DNA of 64,000 nt from Planctomycetota bacterium (GTDB lineage Bacteria; Planctomycetota; UBA1135; UBA2386), in NCBI GenBank assembly GCA_025459175.1, contig JALORC010000003.1:6819-70818 (forward strand). The letters run 5' to 3'. Each line of letters starts with the position of its first letter. Position 1 is the stretch's first letter. Of the stretch, positions 7,685-56,769 are shown in pieces. The translations under genes were made by a program, and so were the position numbers. Under the pieces are notes generated by a model that searched no databases, was not told where the DNA came from, and was given only the letters and a program-made list of their open reading frames with translations.

Positions 7685-10600
7685 TCAGCTGCCGATCTGG
7701 ATCTGCAGCCCACCGCTCAACGCCAGGCCGAGGAAGGGCCCAGCCGGGTCGAGCACCGCCCACTGGAAGAACAGGTTGCTGCCGACCAGCGTCGGCACCG
7801 CCGGGATCGGCACCGGCGCGCTGCCGGAGCCCGCGCCGTCGAGGAACACCGTCGCGCCGGAGCCGATCGGGAAGTCGAGCAGCGCGCGGCACAGCCCGAG
7901 CGCGATGTTCGACGAGCCACCGGACCAGAACTGCACCGCGGCGGAGTTCGGCAGGCCCTGCGCGATCGTGTTCGCGAACGCCGCGTTGCCGACCGTCGGC
8001 AGCCCCGCGGCACCGTTGCCCGGCACGCCGTTCGACCCGGCGCAACCGAGCCCGTACGGCAACACGAACGCGATGCCGGCCCCGCTCGGGTCGTAGACCC
8101 ACGGCTCGATGCCGTTGATGCCGTCGTCGCAGGCGAAGTAGGTCTTGCTGCCGAGGCTGAAGAACTGGCTCAGCGACACCGCGCCGACCCCACCACCACC
8201 GAAGTTCGAGACCTGGCGCGTGTTCGCCGCGGTGCCGTCGGACAGCCACAGCTGCAGACCGCTCGCCAGATCGACGGCACCGAACAGCACCTGCGTGCCA
8301 CCGAGTGCAGCGGTCACGGTGCCGGCGAGCGGACCGTTCGCGAGCCCCGGCGCGACGTCGGCGACGAGGCGCGTGCCGATCGTCGTGCCGTCGGTGAGCC
8401 ACAGCTCGGTGCCGGCCCCGGTCAGGTCGTCGTGCAGGAAGAACAGCCCCGCCTGCGTCGCCACCAGATCGGTGTACGGAGTGAGTCGGCCGAACGCGGT
8501 CGTGGTGACCGGCACCGTGCCGAGCGCGGTGCCGTCGCTGACCCAGAGCTCGCGCTGCCCCGCCACCACCGCCGTGAAGAACAGCCGATTGCCGGCAGCC
8601 ACCAGTCGGTCCGGCGTCGAACTCACGAGGCCCGGTGCCAGATCGCGCACCAGCATCGTGCCGCCCGGCGTGCCGTCCGATCGCCAGAGTTCGCGCCCTG
8701 AGCCGGCGATCTGTGCGGTGAAGTAGCAGATCGAGCCCACGGCGCAGAGTTCGTCCGGCTGCGAGTTCGCGCTGCCGGGGTTGAGGTCGAGGCCGAACGT
8801 GCCCGCCGCCGTCCCGTCGGTGATCCACAACTCCGCACCGGCCAGGCCGTCGTTGGCGGTGAAGAACGCGCGGCTGCCGGCGGCGGTGAAGTTCTCGGCC
8901 AACAGCGAGAAGCTGTCGGCGCTGCCCGGCCGGATGTCGCGCAGCTCGAACGTGCCGACCGCGGTGCCGTCGCTGACCCAGAGCTCGCGACCGTTCGCCG
9001 AGATGCCCGAGAACAGCACCAGCGAGCCCAGCGTCGCGAGGCCGCGCGGCGCCACCGCCGGCACCTGGAACGTCAGCCTGGTCGTGACCCCGGTCAGCGA
9101 ATCGCTGCGGAACAGCTGCTGCCCCTGCTGGAACAGATTGCCGACGCAGAACACGTCGCTGCCGCGCGTCGTCGGATACTCCGGGTTGGAGCCGAACGAA
9201 CCCGGCTGCAGGTCGATCAGCATCGACGTCCCGGCCAGCGTGCCGTCGCTGACGTACGGCTCGGTGCCGTTGTTGTTGCTGCCGGCGGCGAACCAGACCC
9301 GACCGCCGTAGTCGCGGAAGTCGCGCGGCGAGCTGCTGGTGTAGGGCCGATTCACGTCCGCGAGCAGCAGCGTGCCGGCCACGGTGCCGTCGGTGCGGCA
9401 CGGCTCGTCACCGGCACCGCCGAACGCGGACGTCATCAGCACCGACGCGCCGAACGCGGTGATCGCATCCGGTACCGTCGACAGGTTGCCCGTCGACAGA
9501 TCGGCGACCAGCGCGGTGCCGGCGATGGTGCCATCGGTGCGGTGCAGTTCGACGCCTACCGACGGCGCCTGCGCCGCGAACCACAGCTCGGTGCCGATCG
9601 GTGCGAACGCGCCGGGGTTCGACGAACCCGAGCCCGGGATCAGATCCGCGAGCCGGAACGTGCCCGGACCGGTGCCGTCGCTGCGCCACGGCTCGCGCCC
9701 CGCTGCGTCGACCGCGCTGAACACGACCACGCTGCCGATCGTGGTCAGCTCGACAGGATCACCGCCGACCGGCCCCGGCTGCAGGTCGGCGACCAGCTGC
9801 GTGCCCACCGCGGTGCCGTCGGTGCGGTAGAGCTCGCGGCCGACGCCGGCGCCATCGGCGGAGAACCATGCAGTGCTGCCGGTGGTGACGAACTCGCGCG
9901 GCAGCGACCCGGTGGCGCCCGGCTGCAGTTCGGCGAGCTGGAACGTGCCGGCCGGGGTGCCATCGCTGACGAACGGTTCCTGGCCACCGCCGACCTCGGC
10001 TGCGAACAACAGCCGCGCGCCGAAGGCCGCCAACTGCGTGTAGGTCGTGTTCCCTGTGCCTGGGTTCAGATCGGCCACCAGCGTGGTGCCGAGCGCGGTG
10101 CCGTCCGTGCGATGCAGTTCGAAACCGGTGGCGGTCGTCTGGGCGACGAAAAACAACGTCGAGCCGACCACGGTCAACTGCGCCGGGCTCGAGGACGGTC
10201 CGCCGACGACCAGATCGGCGACCAGCGTGGTGCCCGCCGCCGTGCCGTCGCTGCGCCACAGCTCGGTGCCGGTGCTGCCATCGCTGGCGCTGAAGTAGAC
10301 GAAGCCCCCCATGCGCACGAGATGGTCGGGGTTGCTGGCGGCGGTCCCGGCGCGCAGGTCGCGCACCAGCACGGTGCCGGCGGTGGTGCCGTCGGTCTTC
10401 CACAGCTCGCGGCCGAAGCCCGGCACCTCGGCGGCGAACAGGACCTCGCTGCCGAGCACCACGAAGTCGTCGGGGAAGCTGTTGCCCGCCGGCATCAGGT
10501 CCAGCAGCAGATGCGTGCCCGCCTGGCTGCCGTCGGTGACCCATGGCTCGATGCCATGGCCGCTGGTGGCGCGGAACACGGCGCGATTGCCGATCACGTG

Positions 10601-10732
10601 GAAGGCCGGGATCGCGCTGCCGACCTGGCCGCTGGTCGTGGTGACGAGGTTGCCGACCAGCGACTGCGCGGCAGCGGCAGCCGACAGCGTCGCGACAGCG
10701 AGAACGGACCGGGACAGTGAGGTACGGCGCAT
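7685..10732 (-). CDS. Secreted ELWxxDGT-repeat beta-propeller protein with shared C-terminal domain
   Basis: Signal peptide MRRTSLSRSVLAVATLSAAAAAQ; about 18 G-x-E-L/P-W-x-x-D-G-T repeats; ends YGLGCAGSNG...FFQWAVLDP...SGGLQIQIGS. Confidence 0.9.
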   Translation of the reverse strand: MRRTSLSRSVLAVATLSAAAAAQSLVGNLVTTTSGQVGSAIPAFHVIGNRAVFRATSGHGIEPWVTDGSQAGTHLLLDLMPAGNSFPDDFVVLGSEVLFAAEVPGFGRELWKTDGTTAGTVLVRDLRAGTAASNPDHLVRMGGFVYFSASDGSTGTELWRSDGTAAGTTLVADLVVGGPSSSPAQLTVVGSTLFFVAQTTATGFELHRTDGTALGTTLVADLNPGTGNTTYTQLAAFGARLLFAAEVGGGQEPFVSDGTPAGTFQLAELQPGATGSLPREFVTTGSTAWFSADGAGVGRELYRTDGTAVGTQLVADLQPGPVGGDPVELTTIGSVVVFSAVDAAGREPWRSDGTGPGTFRLADLIPGSGSSNPGAFAPIGTELWFAAQAPSVGVELHRTDGTIAGTALVADLSTGNLSTVPDAITAFGASVLMTSAFGGAGDEPCRTDGTVAGTLLLADVNRPYTSSSPRDFRDYGGRVWFAAGSNNNGTEPYVSDGTLAGTSMLIDLQPGSFGSNPEYPTTRGSDVFCVGNLFQQGQQLFRSDSLTGVTTRLTFQVPAVAPRGLATLGSLVLFSGISANGRELWVSDGTAVGTFELRDIRPGSADSFSLLAENFTAAGSRAFFTANDGLAGAELWITDGTAAGTFGLDLNPGSANSQPDELCAVGSICYFTAQIAGSGRELWRSDGTPGGTMLVRDLAPGLVSSTPDRLVAAGNRLFFTAVVAGQRELWVSDGTALGTVPVTTTAFGRLTPYTDLVATQAGLFFLHDDLTGAGTELWLTDGTTIGTRLVADVAPGLANGPLAGTVTAALGGTQVLFGAVDLASGLQLWLSDGTAANTRQVSNFGGGGVGAVSLSQFFSLGSKTYFACDDGINGIEPWVYDPSGAGIAFVLPYGLGCAGSNGVPGNGAAGLPTVGNAAFANTIAQGLPNSAAVQFWSGGSSNIALGLCRALLDFPIGSGATVFLDGAGSGSAPVPIPAVPTLVGSNLFFQWAVLDPAGPFLGLALSGGLQIQIGS

Positions 10733-10871
10733 GGGATCGGGATGGAGAGGCCCATGGGGTCCACGCGGAATGCCGCCCCTCGAGCCTTCAACATTATCCC
10801 ACGGCCGCCGTGCGATCGCCCCGAGCACCGTTCCGGTCAGCGCGTCCCCCCACACGCCGATGGCACCGGTC

Positions 10872-11348
10872 TCAGCCGCCGAGCGTCGCGTGCAGGAACC
10901 ACGCGTGCTTCTCGAACTGCGCGATCATGCCGGTCAGCAGGTCGAACGAGTCCTCGTCCGCGTGCTCCTTCGCGACCTCGCGCGCCGCGCGCATGCCGTC
11001 GAGAAGCGTGCCGATGCGCTCGGCGAGCAGCGCCACGTGCTCGAGGTCCTTGGTCACGTCCTGCGGGTAGTCCGGCAGCCGCGACTTCTTCGCGACGTGC
11101 TTCGCGGTGCCGACGGCGAGGTGACCGAGCGTCAGGATGCGCTCGGCGACCTCGTCGTTGTTGGCGGCCTGGTCGGTCGCGAACGTGTCGAACAACGGGT
11201 GCAGCGCGGCGAACTGCGGGCCCTTGATGTTCCAGTGCGCGACCTTGATCTGCGTGTAGAGGTCGAGACCGTCGGTCAGCACCGCGCGCAGCGCTTCGCA
11301 GACCTTCTTGCGAGCGTCGGCGGACAAGTGGCTCGGGGTGTTCTTCAT
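10872..11348 (-). CDS. dps: Dps/ferritin-like DNA protection protein
   Basis: AHWNIKGPQFAALHPLFD, DEVAERILTLG, EKHAWFL; start MKNTPS overlaps the ahpD stop. Confidence 0.93.
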   Translation of the reverse strand: MKNTPSHLSADARKKVCEALRAVLTDGLDLYTQIKVAHWNIKGPQFAALHPLFDTFATDQAANNDEVAERILTLGHLAVGTAKHVAKKSRLPDYPQDVTKDLEHVALLAERIGTLLDGMRAAREVAKEHADEDSFDLLTGMIAQFEKHAWFLHATLGG

Positions 11349-13858: not shown

Positions 13859-13870
13859 GCGGTCCTCGCG

Positions 13871-23206: not shown

Positions 23207-25414
23207 TCAGCCGCCGATCGTGCTGCGCGCCGCGCCGGAGACGACGAAGCCGAACGAGTTGACGCTCGGATCGAACACCAGCCACTGGTGGTAGAGCCGA
23301 CCGCCGATCAGCGCCGCCTGGTCCGGGATCGGCAACGGCAGCGCAGCGCTGCCGCCCGCGTCGGTCGCGACGACCGCGGACAGGTCACCGGACGCGAACA
23401 GCTGGCACGGCCCCGCACCCGGGATCGTCCACGGCAGCGGGATGCCGGCGTAGCTGGTGTCCGAGAAGCCGGTCGCCAGCACCCCGAGGCTCAGGCCCTT
23501 GGCCCGCGCCAACGTGATCGAGAAGGTGCTGGCGACGATCGGCAACCCGGCGTTGCCGAGGGTCGGCACCGCGTTGTTGACGCCGCCGCCGCAACCGAGG
23601 CGCACCGCCGGCTGCTGGATCAACGTGGACTGCTGCCAGGTGCCGGTGCCCGGCGTGCGGTAGCAACCGACGCCCGCACTGCCCGCGGTCAACTCGCTGA
23701 CCGTGGTGGTCTGCGCCGAGTGGTCGATCGACACCCAGAAGGTGCCGTTCACCGCCACCGGGGTCGGCAGCGTCGCCGTGTAGAAGGCACCCACCGGCCC
23801 GACCGTGATGCTGGTCGACGCGAGCGGCGTGCCCGACGGCAGCGTGCCGTTCGTCGCGTAGACGTAGGCGCCGACCGTGACGTTGCCGCCGGTCGTGCTG
23901 CGCAGGAACACGTCGAACGACGACAGCGTCTCCGGCTGCGCGCTGCTGACGCGATAGGCGTACTCCCAGCTGCGCGTGAGGCCCTCGAGCACACCGCCGC
24001 CGGTGTTGACGCCGACGCAGGTCGGTGGCACCACGCCAGTGCCGGCGCAACCCTGCCCGTACGGCTCGAACAGCGCCGGATTGGCGAGTGCGGGCTCGGC
24101 GAGCTCGGCCAGGCCGGCGAGCACCGACTGCGTGATCATGCGCGACCGCACGAAGTCGTTGGTCGACTGCACGAAGTCGTCGTTGCTGGTGTGGATGAAG
24201 GGCGTCCAGTTGCCGAGATCCTCGAACGGGAACGCCGCGGCGAAGCCGTTCTCGAAGAACGCGCGGTGGTCGCTGGTGCCGGCACTCAGCGGACCGACGT
24301 TGGTCTGCAGCGCCGGCACGTAGGTCTGCGTCCAGCCGACCAGCGCGGTGATCAGGCTCGGGGTCGAGTCGTTGGTGACGTAGTCGACCGAGTAGGTGTC
24401 CCCGGGCGCCCGGTAGGCATTCATGTCGGTGTTGATGTAGGCGACGATCTGCTGGTTCTGCGCCGCCGCGTTCTGCGCGTATGCGCGCGATCCGACCAGT
24501 CCGAACTCCTCGGCGTTCCACCACGCGAAGCGCACCGTGCGACGGAACTGCCGGGTCGAGAAGATGCGCGCGATCTCGAGCACCGCGGCGGAGCCGGAGG
24601 CGTTGTCGTCGGCACCGGGCGAACGATTGGCGGCGGTGCCCGCGATCGAGTCCAGGTGCGCCCCGACCATCACGATCTCGTTCGCGAGTTCGGTGCCGGG
24701 AATCTCGACGACGATGTTGGGGCCGTACTGGGTGCTGAAGGTCTGCGTCGTGAACGGCAGGCCGAGCTGCGTCAGCCGGTTGGTCACGTAGGTGACGGCC
24801 TGCGCGTTCTCCGCCCGATTGGCGCGGCGGGTGAAGATCGCCGCCAGCGCCTGCACGTGGCTCGACAGGTTGGCCTGATTGACCTCCGCGACCATGGTCG
24901 CGATCCGCGGATCAGGGCCGGTGCCCAGCAAGCTCGCGGTCGCGGCGACCGGCGCCGTGCCCGTTCCGCGCGGCGCCGCATACGGCTGCGCCAGCGAGAA
25001 CACCTGCACGCCGCCGTGGAAGCCGGAGCTGTGGCAGTCGCTCGGCAACGTGGCCGGCACCGCAGCCGTGACGAACCAGCTGCGGCGCGCGCGCAGCAGG
25101 CGACCGTGGATCGCGCCCGCACCGCTGCGGGTGCGCGCCGAGACCACCAGCACTTCGCCGGGCTGGACCGGACCGAGCAGCTCGGTGGTGACGCCGGCCA
25201 CCGCGGCCTGCGCGGCGGCGGAGCCGAGCCGGGCGAGGCCGGTCCGACCGAGGTCGCCGTAGAACGCGCCGGCCTGGATCAGCGCCGTGCGCACGGTCAG
25301 GTCGGTGCCGAAGTCGACGAGGTGCAGGTCGCTGATCGGTTGGCCCGCGCTCTGCGCGGCGGGCGCGGCGGTCAGGAACGGCAGGACGAGGAGGGCGGAA
25401 AGCAGTCGGCGCAT
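23207..25414 (-). CDS. Secreted M28-family (leucyl) aminopeptidase with shared C-terminal domain
   Basis: Signal peptide; GAHLDS, PGADDNASG, NAEEFGLVGS, NTDM, SDH, IHTSND; ends YHQWLVFDPSVNSFGFVVSGAARSTIGG. Confidence 0.9.
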   Translation of the reverse strand: MRRLLSALLVLPFLTAAPAAQSAGQPISDLHLVDFGTDLTVRTALIQAGAFYGDLGRTGLARLGSAAAQAAVAGVTTELLGPVQPGEVLVVSARTRSGAGAIHGRLLRARRSWFVTAAVPATLPSDCHSSGFHGGVQVFSLAQPYAAPRGTGTAPVAATASLLGTGPDPRIATMVAEVNQANLSSHVQALAAIFTRRANRAENAQAVTYVTNRLTQLGLPFTTQTFSTQYGPNIVVEIPGTELANEIVMVGAHLDSIAGTAANRSPGADDNASGSAAVLEIARIFSTRQFRRTVRFAWWNAEEFGLVGSRAYAQNAAAQNQQIVAYINTDMNAYRAPGDTYSVDYVTNDSTPSLITALVGWTQTYVPALQTNVGPLSAGTSDHRAFFENGFAAAFPFEDLGNWTPFIHTSNDDFVQSTNDFVRSRMITQSVLAGLAELAEPALANPALFEPYGQGCAGTGVVPPTCVGVNTGGGVLEGLTRSWEYAYRVSSAQPETLSSFDVFLRSTTGGNVTVGAYVYATNGTLPSGTPLASTSITVGPVGAFYTATLPTPVAVNGTFWVSIDHSAQTTTVSELTAGSAGVGCYRTPGTGTWQQSTLIQQPAVRLGCGGGVNNAVPTLGNAGLPIVASTFSITLARAKGLSLGVLATGFSDTSYAGIPLPWTIPGAGPCQLFASGDLSAVVATDAGGSAALPLPIPDQAALIGGRLYHQWLVFDPSVNSFGFVVSGAARSTIGG

Positions 25415-40389: not shown

Positions 40390-42804
40390 TCAGAGCGCGC
40401 CGATCGTCAGGGTCAGGGCGTTGCTGCTGGTGTTCTCGAGAAACAGCAGGTTCGGGTCGACCTCGAGCAGGACGAGTTGCTGGTACAGCTGGAGGCCAGC
40501 GAGAGCCACGATGTCGGGGATGGCGAGCTGCGTGTCGATGGTGCCGGCGGTGGCGACGGCCAACTCGTAGAGGTCCGGCGTGACCAGCAGGTTGCACGTC
40601 GGTGGACTCAGCGGCAGCAGGCTGGACAGCGGGACGCTGATCTGCGTCAAGCCGGTGGCGACGACGACCAATGCGAGCGACGGAATGGTCGTGCTGCGGG
40701 CCCGGAACATCGTGCCGATCCAGGGCAGGTTGGTAGCGCTGTAGGTGTTGGGGCCGCCGGAGCCGGGGCAGGCGATGCCGGTGGTGACCGTCGTGGCGGG
40801 GCAGGTTGGTGCGTAGCGTGCGAAATGGGTGGAGACGAACCCACCGGCGGTACTGAAGTCGCCGCCCGCCACGACGTCGCCATTCGGCAGCACGGCCAGG
40901 GCATGGACAGAGTCGTTCATGCCGCTGCCGAGCGCCGACCAGGTGCCGCCCTTCCAGCGCGCGATGCGGTTCGCGGCCACGCCGCCCGCGGTCGTGAAGG
41001 AGCCGCCCGCCACGAGGGAGCCGTTCGGCAGCACGGTCAGGACATTGACGGTAGGGAAGATGCCGGTCATGCCGCTGCCGAGCGCCGACCACGCGCTGCC
41101 ATCCCAGCGCGCGATGTTGTTCGCGGGGGTGCCGCCGGCAGTCGTGAAGGAGCCGCCCGCCACGAGGTCGCCGTTCGGCAGCACGGTCAGAGCATAGACA
41201 ATGCCGCCCATGCCGCTGCCGAGCGCCGACCATGTGCTGCCATTCCAGCGCGCGATGTAGCTCGCGGCGGTGCCACCGGCGGACGTGAAGAAGCCGCCCG
41301 CCACGAGGTCGCCGTTCGGCAGCACGGTCAGGACATTGACCGAGCCGAAGGGGCTCACGCCGCTGCCGAGTGCCGACCACGTGCTGCCATTCCAGCGCGC
41401 GATGCAGTTCGCGGACACGCCGCCGGCATTCGTGAAGTTGCCGCCCGCCACCAGGTCGCCGTTCGGCAGCACGGTCAGGGCGTGGACATCGTTTCTCATG
41501 CCGCTGCCGAGCGCCGACCACGTGCTGCCATTCCAGCGCGCGATGCGGTTCACGACGGCGCCGCCAGCGGTCGTGAACGAGCCACCCGCCACCAGGTCGC
41601 CGTTCGGCAGCACGGTCAGGGCAAGGACATCGTGGCTGATGCCGATGCCGATGGCGAGCGCCGACCACGAGCTGCCATTCCAACGCGCGATGTTGTTCGC
41701 GGCCGTGCCGTCGGCAGTGCCGAACACGCCGCCTGCCGAGAGGTCGCCGTTCGCCAGCACGGTCAGGGCATTGACAGAGCTGTCCATGCCGCTGCCCAGC
41801 GCCGACCACGTGCTGCCATTCCAGCTCGCAATGCGACTCGCGCTGAGGCCGCCTGCGAGCGAGAAGGCGCCGCCCACCACGAGGTCGCCGTTCACCAGCA
41901 CGGTCAGGGCATTGACCGTGCTGGTCAAGCCACTGCCGAGCGCCGACCACGTACTGCCACTCCAGCGCGCGATGAAGTTCGCGGAACCACCGCCAGCGGT
42001 CGTGAAGAAGCCGCCCGCCACGAGGTCGCCGTTGGGCAGCACGGTCAGGGCAGAGACAGTGTTGTCCATGCCGCTGCCCAGCGCCGACCACGTGCTGCCA
42101 TTCCAGCGCGCGATGCGGTTCGCGGCGGTGCCGCCGGCGGTCGTGAAGCTGCCGCCCGCCACGAGGTCCCCGTTCGGCAGCAAAGTCAGGGCGTTGACTG
42201 TGTTGTCCATGCCACTGCCCAGCGCCGACCACGTGCTGCCATTCCAGCTCGCGATGCGGCTCACGGCGGTGCCGCCGGCGGTCGTGAAGCTGCCGCCCGC
42301 CACGAGGTCGCCGTTCGCCAGCACGGTCAGGGCGCGGACCGTGCCGCTCATGCCGCTGCCGAGCGCCGACCACGTGCTGCCATTCCAGCGCGCGATGCGG
42401 TTCGCGGCGGTGCCGCCGGCGGTCGTGAAATCACCGCCCGCCACGAGGTCGCCGTTCGGCAGCACGGTCAGGGCATGGACTTGGAAGTTCATGCCGCTGC
42501 CGAGCGCCGACCACGTGCCGAGCAGCGGGTCGTAGGTGGCGATTTGGCTCGCCAGTACATTGCCGGCCAGCGCGAAGAATCCAGCGACGACGAGCAAGGG
42601 GGCCGCTGGGCCCGCGCCATCTGGATCCCAGCTCACAGTTGCGCTCACCGTGCCAGCGACTCCAGGCACCCCATCCCCTGGCAGCCATTGTGGTTGGCAC
42701 TGAGCCATCGCCGACGAAGCGCCCCAAGAAAGCGCGCCTGCAATCAGGAGGCTGCGCAGGCGCGAACAGTGCAGGGAGAGGAAGCCAGATGCCGGGGAGT
42801 TCAT
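40390..42804 (-). CDS. Secreted tandem-repeat beta-propeller (LTVLPNGDLVAGGxFTTAGG..ANRIARWNGSTWSALGSG) with shared C-terminal domain
   Basis: 12 near-identical ~47-aa repeats; signal peptide ending ASSAMAQ; ends YQQLVLLE...SSNALTLTIGAL. Confidence 0.9.
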   Translation of the reverse strand: MNSPASGFLSLHCSRLRSLLIAGALSWGASSAMAQCQPQWLPGDGVPGVAGTVSATVSWDPDGAGPAAPLLVVAGFFALAGNVLASQIATYDPLLGTWSALGSGMNFQVHALTVLPNGDLVAGGDFTTAGGTAANRIARWNGSTWSALGSGMSGTVRALTVLANGDLVAGGSFTTAGGTAVSRIASWNGSTWSALGSGMDNTVNALTLLPNGDLVAGGSFTTAGGTAANRIARWNGSTWSALGSGMDNTVSALTVLPNGDLVAGGFFTTAGGGSANFIARWSGSTWSALGSGLTSTVNALTVLVNGDLVVGGAFSLAGGLSASRIASWNGSTWSALGSGMDSSVNALTVLANGDLSAGGVFGTADGTAANNIARWNGSSWSALAIGIGISHDVLALTVLPNGDLVAGGSFTTAGGAVVNRIARWNGSTWSALGSGMRNDVHALTVLPNGDLVAGGNFTNAGGVSANCIARWNGSTWSALGSGVSPFGSVNVLTVLPNGDLVAGGFFTSAGGTAASYIARWNGSTWSALGSGMGGIVYALTVLPNGDLVAGGSFTTAGGTPANNIARWDGSAWSALGSGMTGIFPTVNVLTVLPNGSLVAGGSFTTAGGVAANRIARWKGGTWSALGSGMNDSVHALAVLPNGDVVAGGDFSTAGGFVSTHFARYAPTCPATTVTTGIACPGSGGPNTYSATNLPWIGTMFRARSTTIPSLALVVVATGLTQISVPLSSLLPLSPPTCNLLVTPDLYELAVATAGTIDTQLAIPDIVALAGLQLYQQLVLLEVDPNLLFLENTSSNALTLTIGAL
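40850..42520 (-). repeat. Coding tandem repeat, ~141-150 nt unit x12
   Basis: Near-identical DNA units (gccgctgccgagcgccgaccacgtgctgccattccagcgcgcgatg...) inside the propeller gene. Confidence 0.9.
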
Positions 42805-43542: not shown

Positions 43543-45465
43543 TCACTGCAGACCGATCGTGTGCTTGATCGCGTTGCTGGAGCGCGTGATCAGGTTGCCG
43601 CCGGTCGGCAACACACCATCGAGCACGACGAACTGCGCGTAGATGTCGACGCCCAGCAGGCCGCTCGGGACCAGCAACGGCACCGTGCCGGTCACCGAGG
43701 CTGGCGGCAGGATGAACGTCTCCCACAGGAGCGCGCCCGTCGTCGTACTGAGCACGCACCCAGGCGCAGTGATGCCCGGGACCTGGAAGCCCGGCCGGGT
43801 CGCGCCGACGTCGAGCAGCTGCGCGCCGATCACACCCGCCACGTTGTTGGCGTTCCAACGCAGAGTCTGGCCGGCGAACATGCGACCCGAGTACTGCGCG
43901 CCACCGGCCACGGGCGTCGCCACGGCGGTCTGGCCCATGTTGTTGGCACCGGCCAACTCGACGCTGGTCGTGAACGGCACTTCGATCGAGAGGTCGCGGG
44001 ACTGCGGATCGGCCGAACTCACGGTGCCGATGCGGCCGCGCGTGAACCCGACCAGGGCCGCCGACGTGCTGGCGCTGGCGTTGGCCATCGCCGGCAAGGT
44101 GCCGTAGCGGAACTCGACGATGCCGGTCGCCTCGAAGAACACGCACTGCAGCTGGTTGACCGAGTGACCGCCGACGCCCACGGCCGACACGACGTTGAAG
44201 GGCGCCACATCGAACCACGTCACATAGCAGATCTGGCTGCCGACGGGGCCCTCCGTCAACACGTGCAAGCCGGAGTTCGGGTTGGTGGCGACGTTCTCGG
44301 CCATGTCGAAGTCGAACCACAACGGCATCATGCGAGCCGTCAGACCCGCCGCCGACCCGAGCATCTCGGCCACGGTCGGCGTGAAGTCCGCGATGGTCGG
44401 CGCGCTGTCCAACCACACATAGCCGTTGGTGCACGGCTTGATCGTCGCCGTCGAGCCACCCGGGAAGTTGAAGGTCCAGCCGAGCGCGTGGCTGACCAGG
44501 CCGTCGTCGAGAGAGCCGCTGAACAGCGTGTTGGGGGCCGCATTGACCTTGCTGGCGTCGAACGGCGGCGCGCCGCCCACGACGGTGTAGGTCGTCGGGG
44601 CCGAGACACTGTCCGGAATCAGCGTGAGCCCGGTCAGATCCGCCACCTGGCCATTCAGGAACGACTGGTAGAACGTCGACGGCGAACCGCCACAGGCAGC
44701 GCCGTAGAACTCATTGCGGGCCGGAATCAGCGCGGCGTAGCCGCCAGCGCCGGCGAACTCGAGGCCAACCACCGGTGGGGCCGCGGAGGTCGTGCCGGTC
44801 ACCGCGCCAGGCGTCGCCGCGGTGACACCTTCGCCGCGGACCAGCGCCGCGCCGCCGCTGGTGTCCTGGATGGGCATCATGGCGCCAGCGAACGGCGGCA
44901 GCGTGCCCGCCGTCGGCATCGTGATGTCGATGAGGAGGTTGCGCTGCACGCTCGTCGGATCGAAGACGATCGAGGCGCCGATCGCCGCGAGGTCGATTTC
45001 GATGCTGAAGTTGTTCGGCGTCGAGCCGGTGGACGGCAGCTCGGTCACCGTGGTCGTGCCGAGCGCCCCCATGGTCGTGGTCGCGGCCAGGCGGTTCGTC
45101 GCGAACGTGGTGCTCATGTTCGTGTTGTCCAGCGACGTCGAGCCGAGTTCGACGGTGACCCCGGTCCAGCTGTGACCGCCGGAGTTCTGCTCGCCATCCT
45201 CACCGCGGAACTTGAGCTTGGTGATCACGATGGGCCCGGTGATGCCGGCATTGCCCGTGAAGTGGCTGGCCTCGTAGATGATCTGGAACCGGCCGCCAGC
45301 GCCACCCGTGGCGGGTGCGCGCCACCAGGTGGTCGCCCCGGCGCTGCCGAGCTGGGTCGCGGATTCCGTGAGGTGGTGGTTGTCCGGCAGCAGGAGCTGC
45401 CGCTGGGCCGGCAGCGCCAGAGCCGCGCTGAACAGAACGCCGAAGGAAACAGACGTGCGGATCAT
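43543..45465 (-). CDS. Secreted protein with nidogen-like domain and shared C-terminal domain
   Basis: Signal peptide; YGAACGG; LGWTFNFPGG..TNGYVWL..MMPLWFDFD..YVTW..LQCVFFEATGIVEFRYG; ends YAQFVVLD...SSNAIKHTIGLQ. Confidence 0.85.
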   Translation of the reverse strand: MIRTSVSFGVLFSAALALPAQRQLLLPDNHHLTESATQLGSAGATTWWRAPATGGAGGRFQIIYEASHFTGNAGITGPIVITKLKFRGEDGEQNSGGHSWTGVTVELGSTSLDNTNMSTTFATNRLAATTTMGALGTTTVTELPSTGSTPNNFSIEIDLAAIGASIVFDPTSVQRNLLIDITMPTAGTLPPFAGAMMPIQDTSGGAALVRGEGVTAATPGAVTGTTSAAPPVVGLEFAGAGGYAALIPARNEFYGAACGGSPSTFYQSFLNGQVADLTGLTLIPDSVSAPTTYTVVGGAPPFDASKVNAAPNTLFSGSLDDGLVSHALGWTFNFPGGSTATIKPCTNGYVWLDSAPTIADFTPTVAEMLGSAAGLTARMMPLWFDFDMAENVATNPNSGLHVLTEGPVGSQICYVTWFDVAPFNVVSAVGVGGHSVNQLQCVFFEATGIVEFRYGTLPAMANASASTSAALVGFTRGRIGTVSSADPQSRDLSIEVPFTTSVELAGANNMGQTAVATPVAGGAQYSGRMFAGQTLRWNANNVAGVIGAQLLDVGATRPGFQVPGITAPGCVLSTTTGALLWETFILPPASVTGTVPLLVPSGLLGVDIYAQFVVLDGVLPTGGNLITRSSNAIKHTIGLQ

Positions 45466-46320: not shown

Positions 46321-47820
46321 ATGAATACGACCAACCTCGCCTGTGCCCTCGTGCTCTGGTGCTCTCCCCTGCTCGCCCAAGTCGCCAACGATGAATGCGT
46401 CGGCGCCATCCCGGTCGGGAACGGCGTGTTCGGCCCCTTCGACAACTTCGGCGCCACCACCTCGGCACCAGCCTGGCCCATCCCGGCGAGCCAGGACGTG
46501 TGGTTCTCCTACTCGGCCGGCACGACCGGCCTGCTGACCGTCGACACCTGCGGCTCGGGGCTCGACACCGTCATCCAAGTGTTCGACGGCTACTGCGGTG
46601 CCTTGACGTCGCTGGGATTCAACGACGACGGCTGCCCCTCCGGAGCGGGCAGCCGCGTCACGGTCTCGGTGGCACCCGGTCCCTGTTGGATCCGCGTCGG
46701 CGGCTTCGGCACCGGCCCCGCCAGTTCTGGCTCGTTCAACCTCGCTGTCAGCGGGCCACTCGGTTTCGGCGCCATGGCGACCAACACGATGCTGGGGCGC
46801 GGCTGTGGCGACGTCGATGCGTCGGTCTACGAACCCTACCTCGCCGCTGGCTTCGACCTGAACAACACGACGCTGCGCTGGCAACCCGGTGCTGGCAACT
46901 ACCGGTTCGAGGTCATCGCCGGTGCCAACATCGTGCCGCCGACCGCAGCCGCGACGACGGTGGCGGGTTCGCCGACCAATCAACAGCAGTTCGTGCTGCC
47001 CACGCCGCTGCCGACGCCGTTCGGCCCGGTGACCACGCTCAACGTGACCACGTTCGGTCAACTCGAACTCGGCACCGCGGCGCTGCCCGCGGCCTCCGAC
47101 CAGCCGTCGCCGGCCGCGCTGCTCGCGTGGCCGCGTGCCGTGTTCGCCTGCTGGCACGACTGGAACCCCGCCCTGCCGGGCAGCGGCCCGGTCACCTTCG
47201 AGGTCCTCGGCGGCGTTGCCTACGCGACCTGGAACGGCGTCATGCCACTGCAGCCCTTGGCCTGGGCGCCCAGCACCTTCCAGTTCCAGCTGGACCTCGC
47301 GACCGGCGAGGTGCGACTGGTGCTCGCGTCGCTGGCGTTGAGCACCCATCCCGGGATGGTGCCGCTGGTCGTCGGCTTCTCTCCCGCCGGACCCGACGCC
47401 GACCCCGGGGCAACCGATCTGTCGGCCTGGACCGGATCGCTGCAGCTCGGGCCGGATCGGCCAGGCCTCGTGCTGGTCGCGGCCAATCGCCCCGTGGTGG
47501 GCACGACGTGGAGCCTGCAGGCGAATCAGCTGCCGGCCAGCGGCGTCCTCGGTGTCCAGGTGTTCGGACTCGGCGACCCTGGCTTCGACGATCTCACGGC
47601 CCTTGGTTTGCCGCGCTGCGGCCTGCGCGCCACGCTCGACGCGGTGGTGTCGTGGCCGGCGAGCGGCCCGACCCAAGCCGCTTCGCTGCCGATCCCCAAC
47701 ACGCTGACGATCCTCGGCCTCGATGTGTTCACGACGGCGGCCCTGTGGACGGTGCCGGCGGAGAACCCGTTCGGCGCGTTCACGACCAATGGGCTGCGCG
47801 GGCGCGTGGGCAGTTTCTGA
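46321..47820 (+). CDS. Secreted protein: ANDEC..DVWF (PPC-like) domain, nidogen-like domain and shared C-terminal domain
   Basis: Signal peptide; ANDECVGAIPV, DVWFSY, DTVIQVFDG, NDDGC; LGRGCG; ends NPFGAFTTNGLRGRVGSF. Confidence 0.85.
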   Translation: MNTTNLACALVLWCSPLLAQVANDECVGAIPVGNGVFGPFDNFGATTSAPAWPIPASQDVWFSYSAGTTGLLTVDTCGSGLDTVIQVFDGYCGALTSLGFNDDGCPSGAGSRVTVSVAPGPCWIRVGGFGTGPASSGSFNLAVSGPLGFGAMATNTMLGRGCGDVDASVYEPYLAAGFDLNNTTLRWQPGAGNYRFEVIAGANIVPPTAAATTVAGSPTNQQQFVLPTPLPTPFGPVTTLNVTTFGQLELGTAALPAASDQPSPAALLAWPRAVFACWHDWNPALPGSGPVTFEVLGGVAYATWNGVMPLQPLAWAPSTFQFQLDLATGEVRLVLASLALSTHPGMVPLVVGFSPAGPDADPGATDLSAWTGSLQLGPDRPGLVLVAANRPVVGTTWSLQANQLPASGVLGVQVFGLGDPGFDDLTALGLPRCGLRATLDAVVSWPASGPTQAASLPIPNTLTILGLDVFTTAALWTVPAENPFGAFTTNGLRGRVGSF

Positions 47821-50663: not shown

Positions 50664-52856
50664 ATGCCTCGACTCACACTCGTGCTGGTGCTGTGCGCCT
50701 TCGGGCCACTGCGCTCGCAACAGCTCAACTGGACTCCAGGCACGGCCGTCGAACCGTTCGGCACGCCCAATCTCGCGTTCGACGAACGTCGCAATCGCGC
50801 GGTGCTGGTGATGGACGACCAGACCTGGGAGTTCGATGGTGCGGCGTGGATACGGGCCGCTGCGACCCACGCCCCCGGCAACCGCACGTTACCAGGGCTG
50901 ACCTACGACCGCACAGGCGGCGTCACGTGGCTGTTCGGCGGCCTGCTCTCCGGTGCCGCGCAGAACGATCTGTGGACATGGGACGGCGCGGCCTGGACCG
51001 CAGTCGCGGCGCCAGCGGCGCCGCGCCCCGCACCTCGTTACGACACGGCGATCGCGCACGACACGGCCCGCAACCGGCTCGTGGTGTACGGCGGTCGCAC
51101 CCCGACGGGCTTGTCGAGCGAAACCTGGGAGTTCGATGGCGCGGCGTGGTCGCTGGCAACGCCCACGATCTCGCCGACGGCGCGACTCGGCCACGAACTC
51201 GTCTACGACCAACTCCGGGGGGTCACCGTGCTGTTCGGCGGCCTCGACTCCTCGCTGGCAACCCCGCTGGCGGAGACGTGGGAGTGGAACGGCACCAACT
51301 GGTCGCTGCGCAACTTGCCGCAGAACCCGTCTCCGCGCTACGCCGCCGGTCTCGCCTACGACCGCGCCCAGGCGCGCGTGTTGCTGCACGGCGGTCGCAT
51401 CAGCACGAGCGTCACGGGCTACGTGACCGACACCTGGGCCTATGACGGCGCGACGTGGACGGCGCTGCCGACCGGCGGCACGGTTCCACCCATCGAGGTG
51501 CCGGTGCGACTCTGCTTCGATCCCGCGCGCGGCGAAGCGGTCACCGTCCGCAGCAGAGCCGGCAGCTTGCAGACGTGGGCGTACGACGGTTCCACCTGGC
51601 GTTCCGTGCTGTCGAACCCGCAGCCGGGAGCACGCGACTTCAACACCTGCACCTACGATCCGGCGCGTGGCGTCGGCGTGATGTTCGGAGGTGGCGCCGG
51701 CACAGGCATCTCCTTCAACGACACCTACGACTACCGCGGCGGTGTCTGGCGCCGCATCCCCACCGCTGCGTGGCCTCCCGGGCAGGAGCCACTGGCCTAC
51801 GACCCGGTGAACGCGTCAGTGCTCATGTGGTTGGGCAACGCGGTGTGGCTGTTCGACGGCAACGCATGGACCTCACGGCAGCCGGCGGTGGTGCCGCCGT
51901 GGCGGGGTGGCTATGCGATGGCCACCGACCTCGCGCGTTCCCGCATCGTGCTGTTCGGCGGCGCCAACTTCTTCGGGACGATCAGCGGCGAAACCTGGGA
52001 GTGGGACGGCACCGTGTGGAGCCTGCGGCAGCCAGCGACAGCCCCGGCACCGCGCATATGGGCCGGCATGACCTACGATTCGCTGCGTCAGCGCATCGTG
52101 CTCTACGGTGGCAGTACTTCGACCCCGACGGAGACCGCTGCCAGTGACCACTGGGAATGGGACGGCACCACGTGGTTGCAGCGGAGTCCGGCAGCAGCAC
52201 CGGGCGATCGCATAGCGCCCGGCCTGGTCTTCGACGCGCAGCGCGGCGTCGTGCTGATGCATGGTGGCTCCTACTTGGTGTTCGGCTTCCGGATGCCTCG
52301 CAACGACACCTGGCAATGGAACGGTGTGGCTTGGACGATGCTTCCGGTTGCGTCGCCGCCGCCGACGCGCCGACACATCCCACTGTTCTACGACGCGGGC
52401 CTCGGACGCACGGTGCTGTTCAGCGGCGACCTGCGCAACGACGAATGGCTGCTGGGGCCGGTCTCGGCAGTGGCGGTGGCGAGCTACGGCACCGGCTGCC
52501 CGGGCACGTTCGGGGTGCCACACCTGCGCGGGCGTGGGCTGCCAGTTCCGGGCAACCGGTGGTTCGGCCTGCAGGTGTCGGCGATGGCACCCAACGCATT
52601 CACGGTAGTCGGCCTCGCCAGCAGCCCGCGGAACGCACCCATCGGCGGCGGTTGCACTCTGCTGATCGACGCACCGACGCTGCTGTGGGGCCTCGCCGAT
52701 GCCCGCGGTCAGCTCGAGTTCAACCTACCGCTCCCGAACGTGCCGGCGCTGCTGGGCGGCACCTTGTTCGCGCAGATCGCCGGGCTCGACCCCGCCGGTG
52801 CGTTCGGCGGCGTGCTGGCCGTCAGCCCCGGGCTGCGCATCGACATCGACCGCTGA
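50664..52856 (+). CDS. Secreted Kelch-like (TWEWDG) double propeller with shared C-terminal domain
   Basis: About 12 AYD..R..VLFGG..TWE/xWDG repeats; ends YGTGCPGTFG...FAQIAGLDP...SPGLRIDIDR. Confidence 0.88.
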   Translation: MPRLTLVLVLCAFGPLRSQQLNWTPGTAVEPFGTPNLAFDERRNRAVLVMDDQTWEFDGAAWIRAAATHAPGNRTLPGLTYDRTGGVTWLFGGLLSGAAQNDLWTWDGAAWTAVAAPAAPRPAPRYDTAIAHDTARNRLVVYGGRTPTGLSSETWEFDGAAWSLATPTISPTARLGHELVYDQLRGVTVLFGGLDSSLATPLAETWEWNGTNWSLRNLPQNPSPRYAAGLAYDRAQARVLLHGGRISTSVTGYVTDTWAYDGATWTALPTGGTVPPIEVPVRLCFDPARGEAVTVRSRAGSLQTWAYDGSTWRSVLSNPQPGARDFNTCTYDPARGVGVMFGGGAGTGISFNDTYDYRGGVWRRIPTAAWPPGQEPLAYDPVNASVLMWLGNAVWLFDGNAWTSRQPAVVPPWRGGYAMATDLARSRIVLFGGANFFGTISGETWEWDGTVWSLRQPATAPAPRIWAGMTYDSLRQRIVLYGGSTSTPTETAASDHWEWDGTTWLQRSPAAAPGDRIAPGLVFDAQRGVVLMHGGSYLVFGFRMPRNDTWQWNGVAWTMLPVASPPPTRRHIPLFYDAGLGRTVLFSGDLRNDEWLLGPVSAVAVASYGTGCPGTFGVPHLRGRGLPVPGNRWFGLQVSAMAPNAFTVVGLASSPRNAPIGGGCTLLIDAPTLLWGLADARGQLEFNLPLPNVPALLGGTLFAQIAGLDPAGAFGGVLAVSPGLRIDIDR

Positions 52857-52935: not shown

Positions 52936-53300
52936 TCAGACGTTCCCCAGACGCCATTCCAGGCCATTGCTGAGGATGACGCCGATGGGGTTCGCGCCGG
53001 GCGCTACCGCCCACGCCTGCAGGTACAGGCTTTAGCCGAGTGCCACCGTCAAGTTGGGCAGCGCCAGTTCATATTGCAGCCCGCCAGCGCCGACCGGAGT
53101 GGTGCCGAAGCCAGCGCCGAGATCTGCTGAATGCAGCAGATCGCAGCCGGGCATCCCGATCGGGGCGAGCGACACCGGGATCGGGGCGCCATTGAAGTTC
53201 GCGCGGCTCCAGCCCAGCGCCACGAAGAGGCAACGGACTGTGGGCATGATCGGGTTTCCGAATTTCGTCCGCGCAGGCCCACAATAGCAGGAGTTGGCCG
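52936..53300 (-). pseudogene. Orphan remnant of the shared C-terminal domain with in-frame stop
   Basis: ..LFVALGWS..IPVSLAPIGMPGCDLLHS..LALPNLTVALG*(TAA 53032-53034)SLYLQAWAVAPGANPIGVILSNGLEWRLGNV*; no passenger domain. Confidence 0.75.
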
Positions 53301-53379
53301 ATGGAGGCTCCGGGAATGGTGCGCGAGGGTGCCGGGCGGGGCGCCGCGCCGCAGGTCGATCGCAGCTGGTTGCCGCCAG

Positions 53380-55107
53380 TCAGTTGCCGATGGTACAGAG
53401 CAGGCCGTTGGAGGTCTGCAGTCCCATTGCAGTGTGCGGCGAGAACGCCACCGACTGCCCGCCGAACGAACTGCCGAGCAGGCTGGCACTGCCTGGCACG
53501 GTCAACGGGAACGTCGCGCTCCCGTTGTTGATCGGCAGGACCGCCGAGCCCAGAAACCCGCTGAGGTGGATCCAGCAGGACGGCGCACCGGTCGCGCCGA
53601 GGTCCACACCCGGGACAGTGTCGGACGCAAGAATCAGCAGCCCGAACGGGGCGAACACCGGCACGTTGGTGGTCGTGAACAGCATCGTGGTGCCCAGTGC
53701 GGGCGGGCTGCCGGCAAGGGTCAGCGGCAGCACGTTCGCGGTTCCGAGCGTGAACTGCACCGAGGGCTGCGAGATGTCGATCGGCAGCGGCAGGCGGTGC
53801 GTCGAATTCGGTTGGGGGCCGGGCGACCAGCCGACCAGGATCGTGCCGGTCGCCGTCGGCGGCATCTGCGCCACGCGATAGCGGTACTCGAAGTCGCCGT
53901 TGCTGCGCAGCGCGATCTGGAACGTGATCAGCGACTGTTGTGGCAATGGTGCGCTGGCGCCGTCGAGGGCGCACTCGCGCCAGGTCACGAAGGCGGTCTG
54001 GTTGTCCGGCGCGACGTCGAAGTAGACGCCGGCCGCGCCGCCGTTCACGTCGGGCCGCAGCGGGGCCCACAGCGGCGCCATCTTCGGCAGGCCGTTGACG
54101 AGGGTGTTGCCGTCCGCCTGCAAGTCGTCGGACGTGGCACTGTTGGGGCCCAGCAGCAGCAGCCCGTTCACCGATGCGTGCACGACCGACGTACTGCCGC
54201 CGCCGATCGGGAACGCGAACGGCAGGACCAGCGGTCGGGTGATGGAGTCCTGGCCGAGCGGCAGACCGCTGCCATTGGTGGTCAGCGGCGCGCCGCCGGG
54301 TTGGAACCAGCCGCCGACACCACTGCTGACGCTGTAGCCGCCCGCGCTCCGCGTGTGGATGAGTCGCCGCTCCTGCCCCGGGGCGCTGCCGAGATCGAAG
54401 GTTCCGGGCGACAAGAAGATCTTGTAGTAACCTGTATTGCTGTCCAGGCAGCCGTTGCCGACCGTGTTGACGGTGGCGCAGGTGGTGGACGGCGCGAAGG
54501 TGAGCCGCACCTGCATGGCACTGTGCGCACTTCCCGTGATCGGCACCTGACTCGACGGGGTAGCCGTCTCGGTGGAGATCCATGAATGGCCGGATGTGCG
54601 CAGCCAAAGGGTGCCGGACGGATTGGCGGCGATCGAAATGCGGATGCCGATGTCTCGCACGCCGTCCCACACGAAGCCGGCCGACTGCACACCGGGCAAC
54701 GAGACCCATTGGTTGGCCACCCAGGGGAGCGAGAACAGCCCTTGGGCCGGGGCGAACACGGTCACCGGTTGGTCGAGGTTGGTGTTCCAGTTGCCCGGGA
54801 TCGGTGGCGACACCGTCAGGTGGCCGATCTGGACCAACGCCGAACTGCACTGGAACACGCCGCTCGGGCCATTGGCATTGACCCCGGAAGCGGCGATCGC
54901 GAAATCGAGCAGCTGGGAGTTTGCACAGACCCCCGAGACCTTCAGGCGCGAGGCCGGGTAGAAGTGAATCGATGTGCGGCCGTTGGGGGCTGGATTGAGA
55001 AAGGGGCCGAGTGGGAAGCCGGTCGTGAAAGTGCTGTCGATGCCGACCACCTGCGCAGACAGCGGGGTGAGCAGCAACAGCCCGAACGAGACCAAATGAC
55101 AACGCAT
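53380..55107 (-). CDS. Secreted protein with nidogen-like domain and shared C-terminal domain
   Basis: Signal peptide; VGNGC; LPFAFPIGG..VNGLLLLG..MAPLW..VYFD..FVTW..TFQIALRSNGDFEYRY; ends MGLQTSNGLLCTIGN. Confidence 0.85.
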   Translation of the reverse strand: MRCHLVSFGLLLLTPLSAQVVGIDSTFTTGFPLGPFLNPAPNGRTSIHFYPASRLKVSGVCANSQLLDFAIAASGVNANGPSGVFQCSSALVQIGHLTVSPPIPGNWNTNLDQPVTVFAPAQGLFSLPWVANQWVSLPGVQSAGFVWDGVRDIGIRISIAANPSGTLWLRTSGHSWISTETATPSSQVPITGSAHSAMQVRLTFAPSTTCATVNTVGNGCLDSNTGYYKIFLSPGTFDLGSAPGQERRLIHTRSAGGYSVSSGVGGWFQPGGAPLTTNGSGLPLGQDSITRPLVLPFAFPIGGGSTSVVHASVNGLLLLGPNSATSDDLQADGNTLVNGLPKMAPLWAPLRPDVNGGAAGVYFDVAPDNQTAFVTWRECALDGASAPLPQQSLITFQIALRSNGDFEYRYRVAQMPPTATGTILVGWSPGPQPNSTHRLPLPIDISQPSVQFTLGTANVLPLTLAGSPPALGTTMLFTTTNVPVFAPFGLLILASDTVPGVDLGATGAPSCWIHLSGFLGSAVLPINNGSATFPLTVPGSASLLGSSFGGQSVAFSPHTAMGLQTSNGLLCTIGN

Positions 55108-55240: not shown

Positions 55241-55319
55241 CCGAACCACCCGGAACCCACCCGCCGCAGCTTGCCGCCCGAACCCCGCCCCGTCCAACGT
55301 CGCGTTCGACACCGCGACT

Positions 55320-55442
55320 GCGGCACGACGAGTCCAGCGCGGCATCGCCGCCCTCGACGTGCGCTTGTAGGGCGGCCTCGACCAGCGCGGTGATCGGGTC
55401 GTCGCTGCCGCCATGCGCCTCGTCCGCACGCGTTTCCGTCAT
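55320..55442 (-). pseudogene. N-terminal stub resembling planctomycete Ser/Thr kinase leaders
   Basis: MTETRADEAHGGSDDPITALVEAALQAHVEGGDAALD; compare the DDEDPIERIMASLLA leader of the kinase at 26453. No kinase domain follows. Confidence 0.35.
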
Positions 55443-55579
55443 CGGAGCGGGCATGCTGGCGTTGGCCGGCCTTGTGGTCAAAGCCCCGCGGTTTCGCGGT
55501 TCGGCGCCGGCTGACGACGTCGTTCGAAGTCTCTGTCGTGGAGAGGTGCGGTGACCTCGCGACCGACCTTCGGCCGCAC

Positions 55580-56131: not shown

Positions 56132-56321
56132 CGCAACTTCGGGTCGGACCACGACGACTCTACCGCAGACGTTCCGCCAGAGTGCCTTCGCGTTGCCGGA
56201 ACGCGCGATCCGCCGCGACCAGCGTACGCACGGGACGTCACGCCGCTTGTTGCTGGCCAACCCGAGATCCGAGCCGCGACGCCGGCTTGGGCCAAGAGCT
56301 CAGCGTAGAGCGGAGGATACG

Positions 56322-56606
56322 ATGGATGACATGACACAGGAGCCGAGAGCGCCAACTCGCCATCTCCCAGCGACTCGAACGTCAACCAGCGCTTCTCGTA
56401 GGGTGCCCTTGCCCAGGATGCACGTTGCAGGACGTCTCCGCTTCTTGCGGACACTGGAGTCAATCAACATCGTGCTGGTTCCCGGCGCGCTCGTCGGGTT
56501 CTGGTGGCGCCGACTTCGTGAATCGGCGCTGGCAACCGACCTGCGCCGGGTTCGTGAACGTGCGGCGCTTTCACGGAACGCAAGCAATGGACGCCAGGAT
56601 GCCTGA
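56322..56606 (+). pseudogene. Possible truncated membrane-protein fragment
   Basis: GGAGG before the ATG; one hydrophobic segment (INIVLVPGALVGFWW), then degenerate sequence. Confidence 0.25.
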
Positions 56607-56643
56607 CCAGGGGTAGCACTCGACACACGGCATCCGCCAGCAC

Positions 56644-56769
56644 CCCGGCTGCCCGCTGCACCAGAGCACCGAGGCGAGCTTCGTGTTCGCCAGCAACGCG
56701 GCCGGTCCGGTGACCACGGCGGCCACCGTGCCGGACAACCAGACCCTGGTCGGGCTGACGCTGCCGTAG
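56644..56769 (+). pseudogene. Internal remnant of the shared C-terminal domain
   Basis: PGCPLHQSTEASFVFASNAAGPVTTAATVPDNQTLVGLTLP* matches the PGC....G.......P....LvG..L segment. Confidence 0.6.

Follow-up and report, generated by a model that had tools for sequence, protein, structure and literature searches.

A predicted terminal beta-sandwich shared by hundreds of diverse, putatively exported proteins in Planctomycetota: a candidate docking module of the cell envelope

Eight genes in a 64,000-nt stretch of Planctomycetota DNA (hereafter the window; positions 6819-70818 of contig JALORC010000003.1, assembly GCA_025459175.1) encode proteins with signal peptides whose main bodies, or passengers, are of several kinds and whose last residues are alike, which raises the question of what one common ending does on such varied cargo. 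Shared terminal tags, such as the C-terminal domains (CTDs) of the type IX secretion system (T9SS), PEP-CTERM signals and dockerins, have time and again been the clue by which machines for secretion, sorting and surface assembly were discovered. The window (G+C 70%) belongs to a single draft genome of 258 contigs and 7.55 Mb (93.75% complete, 5.78% contamination), and we asked how the endings are related, how often and where they recur, what fold they may adopt and what takes their place elsewhere. The answer developed below is that the eight proteins share a large, lineage-restricted family of terminal domains, which we tentatively read as docking or anchoring modules. Genes are named by their lower coordinate in the window.

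The eight genes named in a preliminary description of the window are real open reading frames (ORFs) at the coordinates given there, with a high G+C content at third codon positions (GC3, 0.84-0.93) as in genuine genes. That description had credited their products with a common C-terminal domain, and pairwise BLASTP bore this out: the last ~135 residues are homologous, each tail being joined to several others at E<1e-4 (for example 50664 to 7685 at E 2e-21, and 23207 to 7685 at E 8e-16), and even the most divergent tail, that of 43543, matches others down to E 3e-5. The motif string proposed at the outset re-emerged as the consensus of the family profile, ..YGxGCxGSxGxPxL...GxPxLGxxFxLxLxG...PGCxLLxSxD...LPIPNxPxLxGxxLYxQxxxLDPxxNxLGxxxSNGLxxxIG-stop. 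Its G-x-x-C strand lies inside the end region in the five compact tails; in 43543, 46321 and 53380, by contrast with what had been proposed, it stands 271-312 residues ahead of the second Cys, the domain being interrupted by an inserted all-beta module of ~210-250 aa. As had been claimed, all eight proteins carry a signal peptide; each is of Sec type and ends in AQ or SQ, provided that the starts of four genes are revised (to 10732, 25414, 31000 and 42804). The first, second and fourth of these are the starts of genes 7685, 23207 and 40390, and for gene 29654 the likeliest start is 31000 (MHILPQ...), not 31666. Scans of the whole proteins against Pfam-A and NCBIfam hit passengers (ELWxxDGT repeats, an M28 peptidase, two Kelch proteins and a Rax2/DUF5122/delta-60 propeller; three passengers are without a family) and nothing in the tails.

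A hidden Markov model (HMM) built from the eight tails was run against the 60,045 six-frame stop-to-stop ORFs of at least 60 aa in the same genome, and at an independent E-value (i-E) below 1e-3 it found 290 domains, each on a separate ORF, with 256 of them ending no more than 10 residues from the stop codon. Three rounds of profile iteration brought the number of domain-bearing ORFs to 378, 403 and then 412. Neither the first nor the last profile matched any of the reversed ORFs of the genome, and chance as the source of the tail homology is excluded. Domain-bearing genes amount to about 1 in 11 of the gene calls (n=4,628, from a crude GC3-based caller). Every one of the 412 ORFs has a single significant domain, never a tandem, and a median of 586 aa precedes it; domain-only proteins are almost absent, the short cases being nearly all fragments at contig edges.

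The domain had been expected always to be terminal. It is terminal in ~97% of the 408 copies that are uncut by contig ends, and it is not always C-terminal. When incomplete profile ends are allowed for, 382 of the 412 copies reach the stop, 4 run into a contig end and the other 26 are placed otherwise; where the profile end is reached (291 copies), 0-5 residues follow it in 276. Among the 26 exceptions, the domain is followed by 31-42 residues in 13 and by 236-676 in the other 13. About eight of the latter have the order signal peptide, domain, passenger (Kelch, esterase-like and others), with the passenger C-terminal to the domain; at least one exception (C15) looks like non-coding read-through. 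The domain is terminal, not strictly C-terminal, and the eight or so copies at the mature N-terminus speak against a secretion signal that has to be C-terminal and favour a docking or anchoring module.

Two features of the extreme ends can be noted. In the 13 copies with 31-42 extra residues (contigs C232, C27, C53, C184, C169, C8, C110, C187, C114, C52, C210, C153 and C254), the added tails, 12 of which were inspected, have hydrophobic, strand-like ends (...VLRLTTQ, ...VRLTVQ, ...LVTLFQ) and no transmembrane (TM) segment. Of the 382 C-terminal copies, 124 have F, Y or W (83 of them F) as the final residue, as against 5.4% of other ORFs, G-x-F and G-x-L being frequent endings; such an aromatic last residue could be a feature of core packing or of recognition.

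The cargo is as varied genome-wide as in the window. Single-linkage clustering of the 379 passengers longer than 150 residues gave 104 clusters, 78 of them singletons; the largest hold 120 members (Kelch and delta-60 propellers), 60 (the insertion-bearing form of the domain), 31, 19 and 10 (ELWxxDGT). By a crude heuristic, a signal peptide was flagged in 265 of the 412 domain-bearing ORFs and in 187 of 600 other genes drawn at random among those of 300 aa or more. The signal peptides of several propeller-type proteins, that of gene 40390 among them, end in A-Q-C, and 85 copies of the domain have a third Cys at profile column 4, at the domain start (T-C-P-A). A disulfide from the N- to the C-terminal region that closes the propeller is conceivable.

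An AlphaFold2 (AF2) model of the tail of 50664, computed from an alignment of 42 tails, is all-beta with 11 strands, at a mean predicted local distance difference test score (pLDDT) of 92.2 and a predicted template-modelling (TM-score) confidence, pTM, of 0.84. Low confidence is limited to the first ~9 residues, which puts the domain at ~125 residues. The model has neither a helix nor a TM segment, in agreement with the earlier statement that a TM helix is absent. Foldseek returned no match to the compact domain in the PDB at E<=1e-3, and VIA-align over 48,161 chains gave a plateau of immunoglobulin (Ig)-like, fibronectin type III (FN3) and macroglobulin sandwiches with tied Z scores of 7-8.6, a range rated common, the best neighbour being 5gni_A (Z 8.6, root-mean-square deviation (rmsd) 2.7, 94 residues aligned). 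Two copies of the domain modelled as a complex scored 0.01.

The most conserved positions among the 412 copies are Pro99 (391), Gln112 (387), Gly33 (365) and Gly106 (362). A disulfide between the two conserved cysteines had been put forward as possible, and Cys15 and Cys72 do co-vary as expected of a predicted disulfide pair: both are present in 233 copies and neither in 97, with Cys72 alone in 70 and Cys15 alone in 12. Much of the class with Cys72 alone plausibly represents the insertion variant. The passengers of 43543, 46321 and 53380 cluster with 57 others, and the region common to them consists of the 210-250 residues directly before the domain core; an alignment of insertion-bearing members has the G-x-G-C strand at the start of this region, so that the module interrupts the domain just after its first strand. 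In the 17 aligned rows of this form, gene 43543 among them, the two cysteines are 260-312 residues apart. An AF2 model of residues 125-499 of 46321 (375 residues) is all-beta at a pLDDT of 82.6, and its Foldseek search of the PDB gave only rows of low TM-score (<=0.22), none of them informative. That the Cys pair is kept in spite of the insertion, and that the proteins have signal peptides, is consistent with a predicted disulfide formed outside the cytoplasm.

The sequence libraries and the literature that we searched hold no description of this family. At E<=1, the 42 tails matched only passenger remnants in Pfam and NCBIfam, and a profile search of PDB sequences found nothing below E 0.6. 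The 30 nearest clusters in the ESM Atlas are all labelled 'hypothetical protein' and lack a Pfam family, Planctomycetota being their commonest phylum, and all members that bear a name on record are likewise 'hypothetical protein', relatives being entered as 'hypothetical protein [Planctomycetota bacterium]'. A full-text literature search turned up no description of such a domain in the portions of text that it returned. HMMER over 1.84 billion representative metagenome proteins (clusters at 50% identity) found 13,848 matches at E<=1e-3 and 4,063 at E<=1e-10; among the best 150 of the 13,848, 148 end at most 5 residues from the protein end, and two (P0045 and P0118) are N-terminal. The family is thus very large, with ~13,800 clusters and up to ~400 genes in one genome. 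Modelling it as a family would put a name on thousands of proteins and delimit what several uncultured lineages of planctomycetes secrete or display at the surface, and it would provide a handle on a receptor or machine through phylogenetic profiling, with the genome G457 (below) as a natural case of loss and replacement.

The preliminary description had called the domain lineage-specific, and its distribution is indeed restricted: it was found in 57 of 301 sampled genomes across the phylum, and in another phylum, that of a metagenome-assembled genome labelled Myxococcales, in 1 of 151 genomes, by one weak match (E 1.6e-5). Within the phylum, presence is all-or-none by family, with every sampled genome positive in some families (f1 4/4, f2 7/7, f3 2/2, f4 2/2, f14 5/5, f21 2/2, f25 6/6) and none in others (f7 0/15, f15 0/15, f24 0/10, f28 0/10). 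In the genome's own order, 15 of 15 sampled genomes were positive. Four other genomes of the order, in each of which at most 150 first-look candidates were scored, have at least 87, 142, 75 and 126 matches (G456, G458, G460 and G461, respectively) and no Dockerin_1 match. Five genomes of other lineages that have Kelch homologues lacking the domain, the one labelled Myxococcales among them, were all negative (0/5).

The tails of homologous passengers in other genomes indicate what can stand in place of the domain. We compared 80 loci with Kelch relatives of 50664; 34 have the domain at the end, and their records read Planctomycetota, Planctomycetia or 'Brocadiaceae' in 32 cases and just 'bacterium' in 2. 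Among the remaining loci, 14 tails without the domain were scanned. Dockerin_1 scored above its cut-off on the homologues at L015 (59 bits) and L039 (26 bits), the GC-type dockerin NF041540 did so at L077 (37 bits) and fell just under it at L015, L026 and L039, and MYXO-CTERM was above cut-off at L049 (23.9 bits). Four further tails (L018, L024, L055 and L067) have, by eye, a Cys, a hydrophobic stretch of TM type and an Arg-rich end. On homologous passengers, then, the domain is replaced by known anchoring or sorting modules. Another conserved ending of Kelch homologues, ...ALDY/FVELRVRYQ..., was seen at seven loci (L045, L052, L054, L065, L075, L082 and L086), whose records are labelled Myxococcales, Anaeromyxobacter, Myxococcota or just 'bacterium'; it has no Pfam or NCBIfam match in L052 and L086, and may be a second undescribed terminal module.

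Dockerins and the domain are also distributed reciprocally within the order. The genome of the window has no Dockerin_1 match, and its three PEP-CTERM matches are all on ORFs without the domain. Of 61 genomes of the order, 48 have no dockerin match, 12 have one or two, and one, G457 (2.9 Mb, 91% complete), has 39; G457 is also the sole domain-free genome (0/19 candidates) of the five tested in the order. Ten of its 39 dockerins were examined, and they end 14-20 residues before the stop of frames of 270-797 aa. To judge from these sequences, G457 (L119-L123) is a natural case of tag replacement. The ten dockerin-like tails are closely alike, reading C-x-G-Y-L-P-G-D-V-N-G-D-G ... W-N-G-x-S-L-P, followed in some by C-P-N or C-P-G.

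Our best explanation, held tentatively and at a little short of even confidence, is that the domain is a common terminal docking or anchoring module for a shared envelope receptor. Proteins would be exported by Sec via their N-terminal signal peptide, after which the domain, a clade-specific and usually disulfide-stapled (predicted) Ig-like beta-sandwich, would fold outside the cytoplasm. It would then hold its diverse passengers (beta-propellers, peptidases and many without a family) at one shared envelope site by way of a common receptor, which may be a protein or an envelope polymer, in the role that dockerins, GC-type dockerins and CTERM anchors have in other lineages. The preliminary description had likewise proposed a targeting or surface-assembly module, and each sequence-based check that it named for its own refutation came out on its side. 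The homology of the tails, their terminal position, the lineage restriction and the signal peptides of the eight proteins are established here, as are the copy number, the fold class, the covariation of the cysteines and the replacement by known modules on homologous passengers; it is the function itself, namely that the domain localises proteins and that a receptor exists at some site, that we infer from them.

Of the known kinds of terminal module, the domain would seem to behave most like a dockerin, being apparently folded, present once per protein, found at either end, exchangeable on the same cargo and reciprocal in distribution. Dockerins are ~60-aa duplicated Ca-binding helical modules that can sit at either terminus. 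Like them, the domain is a terminal module, mostly C-terminal and sometimes N-terminal, on many unrelated Sec-exported proteins of one genome, and dockerins (PF00404, NF041540) occupy the same place on homologous Kelch passengers and complement it within one order. Unlike them, it has no sequence match to PF00404 or NF041540, its model is a sandwich of ~125 aa made of strands only, and no cohesin-like partner was found for it. PEP-CTERM, MYXO-CTERM and LPXTG-type signals are ~25-35 aa long, combine a motif with a TM helix and a basic tail, and are processed by a membrane sortase. They too assign one fate to numerous exported proteins within a lineage, and MYXO-CTERM replaces the domain at L049; the domain, however, is predicted to be folded, lacks the helix and the basic tail, ends in a beta-strand with I/V-G plus 0-5 residues, and has no co-distributed membrane sortase, the only nearby candidate, a CPBP protease, not being co-distributed. 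To judge by sequence, the domain belongs to none of the T9SS-CTD, dockerin and PEP/MYXO-CTERM families, since the features of sequence that define them were looked for and are absent.

Several observations weigh against a docking module. No receptor, scaffold or processing enzyme was found for the domain, and the neighbours enriched around its genes are regulators (extracytoplasmic function (ECF) sigma factors and Ser/Thr kinases) rather than envelope parts. The predicted fold is a generic Ig-like sandwich, clear as to class and implying no function. Both cysteines are missing from 97 of the 412 copies. The signal-peptide heuristic is unspecific as well as crude, and contig ends truncate many ORFs, which makes the genome-wide excess weak evidence alone. 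Finally, the dockerin proteins of G457 are not homologous to the domain's passengers in the genome of the window (0/10), so the reciprocity concerns tags, not cargo.

The domain could instead be a secretion signal, its folded sandwich being recognised in the periplasm by an outer-membrane translocon and possibly cleaved, as are T9SS CTDs in Bacteroidota. The anatomy is similar, with hundreds of copies per genome of a predicted Ig-like sandwich placed at the very C-terminus of diverse cargo exported by Sec, a stop 0-5 residues after the last strand and the excess of aromatic final residues noted above. The CTD of PorU (6za2_B) is moreover among the structural neighbours, at rank 43 (Z 7.1, rmsd 3.2, 94 aligned residues), a Z score within the generic range. 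We nevertheless consider this explanation unlikely. The T9SS sorting-domain model TIGR04183 has no match in the eight proteins (E<=0.01) or in the 42 tails (E<=1), as the preliminary description had anticipated, and its only two matches genome-wide are borderline and fall on other ORFs. The T9SS components SprA, PorV and GldM (TIGR04189, NF033710 and TIGR03517) gave no matches in this 94%-complete genome, with control genomes also silent for SprA and GldM; the T9SS core parts are likely absent. The domain is also longer than T9SS CTDs (~125 aa), usually has a Cys pair, exists in an insertion-bearing form and occurs in Planctomycetota-labelled genomes. Nor is it obligately at the extreme C-terminus (382/412): 13 copies have 31-42 residues beyond it and about eight come right after the signal peptide, where an obligate C-terminal signal could not work. 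The domain might, alternatively, be the address tag of a novel Planctomycetota pathway for envelope sorting or outer-membrane export, with its own receptor or translocon and unrelated to T9SS, sortases and cohesins, and we give this little credence as well; if true, several hundred substrates in each cell would pass through it, on the above share of crude gene calls.

A terminal ligand-binding or adhesive Ig-like module would give the proteins a common external target (a glycan, a particle or a prey surface) rather than a cellular address. Adhesin and carbohydrate-binding module (CBM) sandwiches do occur among the neighbours of the Ig/FN3/macroglobulin-like fold, the domain is found at either terminus, and many passengers are beta-propellers, which are typical of binding proteins. 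Yet there is one copy per protein, never a tandem, and ~97% of copies are terminal; few passengers resemble carbohydrate-active enzymes; the tails show no similarity to CBM or adhesin families even at E<=1, nor to PDB sequences, and the structural neighbours are tied in Z score; and homologous passengers elsewhere bear cell-anchoring rather than binding modules in its place. We therefore regard binding of an external target as doubtful. Least probable by far, to our mind, is a structural cap that stabilises the passenger fold, for instance by closing beta-propellers, and has no role of its own. Propellers do form the largest passenger cluster (120/379), and the third Cys could pair with a passenger Cys; the same domain, however, is also attached to an M28 peptidase, to ELWxxDGT repeats and to 78 passengers that cluster with no other, and it is modelled as an independent domain (pLDDT 92).

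The coordinates of the domain-bearing genes in the window are collected in Table 1. Beyond them, the last part of the interval first assigned to the domain-bearing genes, 55108-56769, contains no related sequence. A ninth, truncated copy is probably the remnant of a tandem duplicate.

Table 1. Genes of the window that carry the terminal domain (CTD), with a relic copy; positions are those of the window.
Feature	Position	Strand	Evidence
ELWxxDGT-repeat protein, signal peptide MRRTSLSRSVLAVATLSAAAAAQ, compact CTD 7688-8071	7685..10732	-	TIGR04534 682 bits; CTD i-E 6e-23
M28 peptidase, signal peptide MRRLLSALLVLPFLTAAPAAQ, compact CTD 23210-23605	23207..25414	-	PF04389 132.7 bits; CTD i-E 2.8e-28
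Kelch-repeat protein, signal peptide MHILPQFLSLAATAAMAIAQ, revised start, compact CTD 29657-30043	29654..31000	-	Kelch families; CTD i-E 1.5e-28
Rax2/DUF5122/delta-60 beta-propeller, signal peptide, compact CTD 40393-40809	40390..42804	-	PF12768, PF17164, TIGR02608; CTD i-E 4.3e-33
Passenger without known family; G-A-A-C strand ~44703, inserted beta module, core 43546-43947	43543..45465	-	CTD i-E 1.1e-10; Cys258 and Cys570; no Pfam/NCBIfam match
Short Cys-rich passenger; insertion-bearing CTD ~46795 (GRGC) to 47817, core 47464-47817	46321..47820	+	CTD i-E 4.9e-22; Cys columns; AF2 model
Kelch-repeat protein, signal peptide, compact CTD 52464-52853 (tail modelled)	50664..52856	+	Kelch families; CTD i-E 2.1e-26
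Passenger without known family; insertion-bearing CTD ~54459 (GNGC) to 53383, core 53383-53745	53380..55107	-	CTD i-E 3.3e-22; Cys220 and Cys511
Relic of a CTD, truncated, immediately past the stop of gene 53380; profile positions 44-105 only, ends before the conserved Gln	53032..53379	-	i-E 5.6e-7; translation

Genes with the domain adjoin one another more often than expected (82 adjacent pairs against ~37), and five of them form the densest cluster of the window, around a CPBP/Rce1-like protease (48040-49143, minus strand) that is single-copy in the genome. As a candidate sortase this protease was rejected, because even within the genus no close orthologue turned up (best E 1e-10, 31% identity) and its family is generic, with matches in 270 of 301 genomes; a tblastn search for it in related loci found only one weak match of 85 aa (L007). 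A HEAT-repeat protein (48972-50510, plus strand) is likewise embedded among the five genes.

The regulators near domain-bearing genes include a 77-member ECF sigma family, with many members fused to CarboxypepD_reg repeats, of which 34 lie within two genes of such a gene (binomial p 7e-5). This suggests that each domain-bearing gene or cluster may have its own envelope-signal regulator. In the window, ECF sigma factors and Ser/Thr kinases with tetratricopeptide repeats (TPR) stand near these genes at 36592-39834 (plus strand), 26438-29626 (plus strand) and 13277-13870 (minus strand). Also between domain-bearing genes, at 33826-36387 (minus strand), is the gene of a caspase-like Peptidase_C14 protein that has Sel1 repeats and, at its C-terminus, a DUF2610. 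Two other products of the window are likely envelope proteins that lack the domain, one with a CIA30 and a double fasciclin region (31153-33585, plus strand) and the other a multihaem cytochrome c of ~970 aa with c3/c7-type motifs (58051-60960, minus strand).

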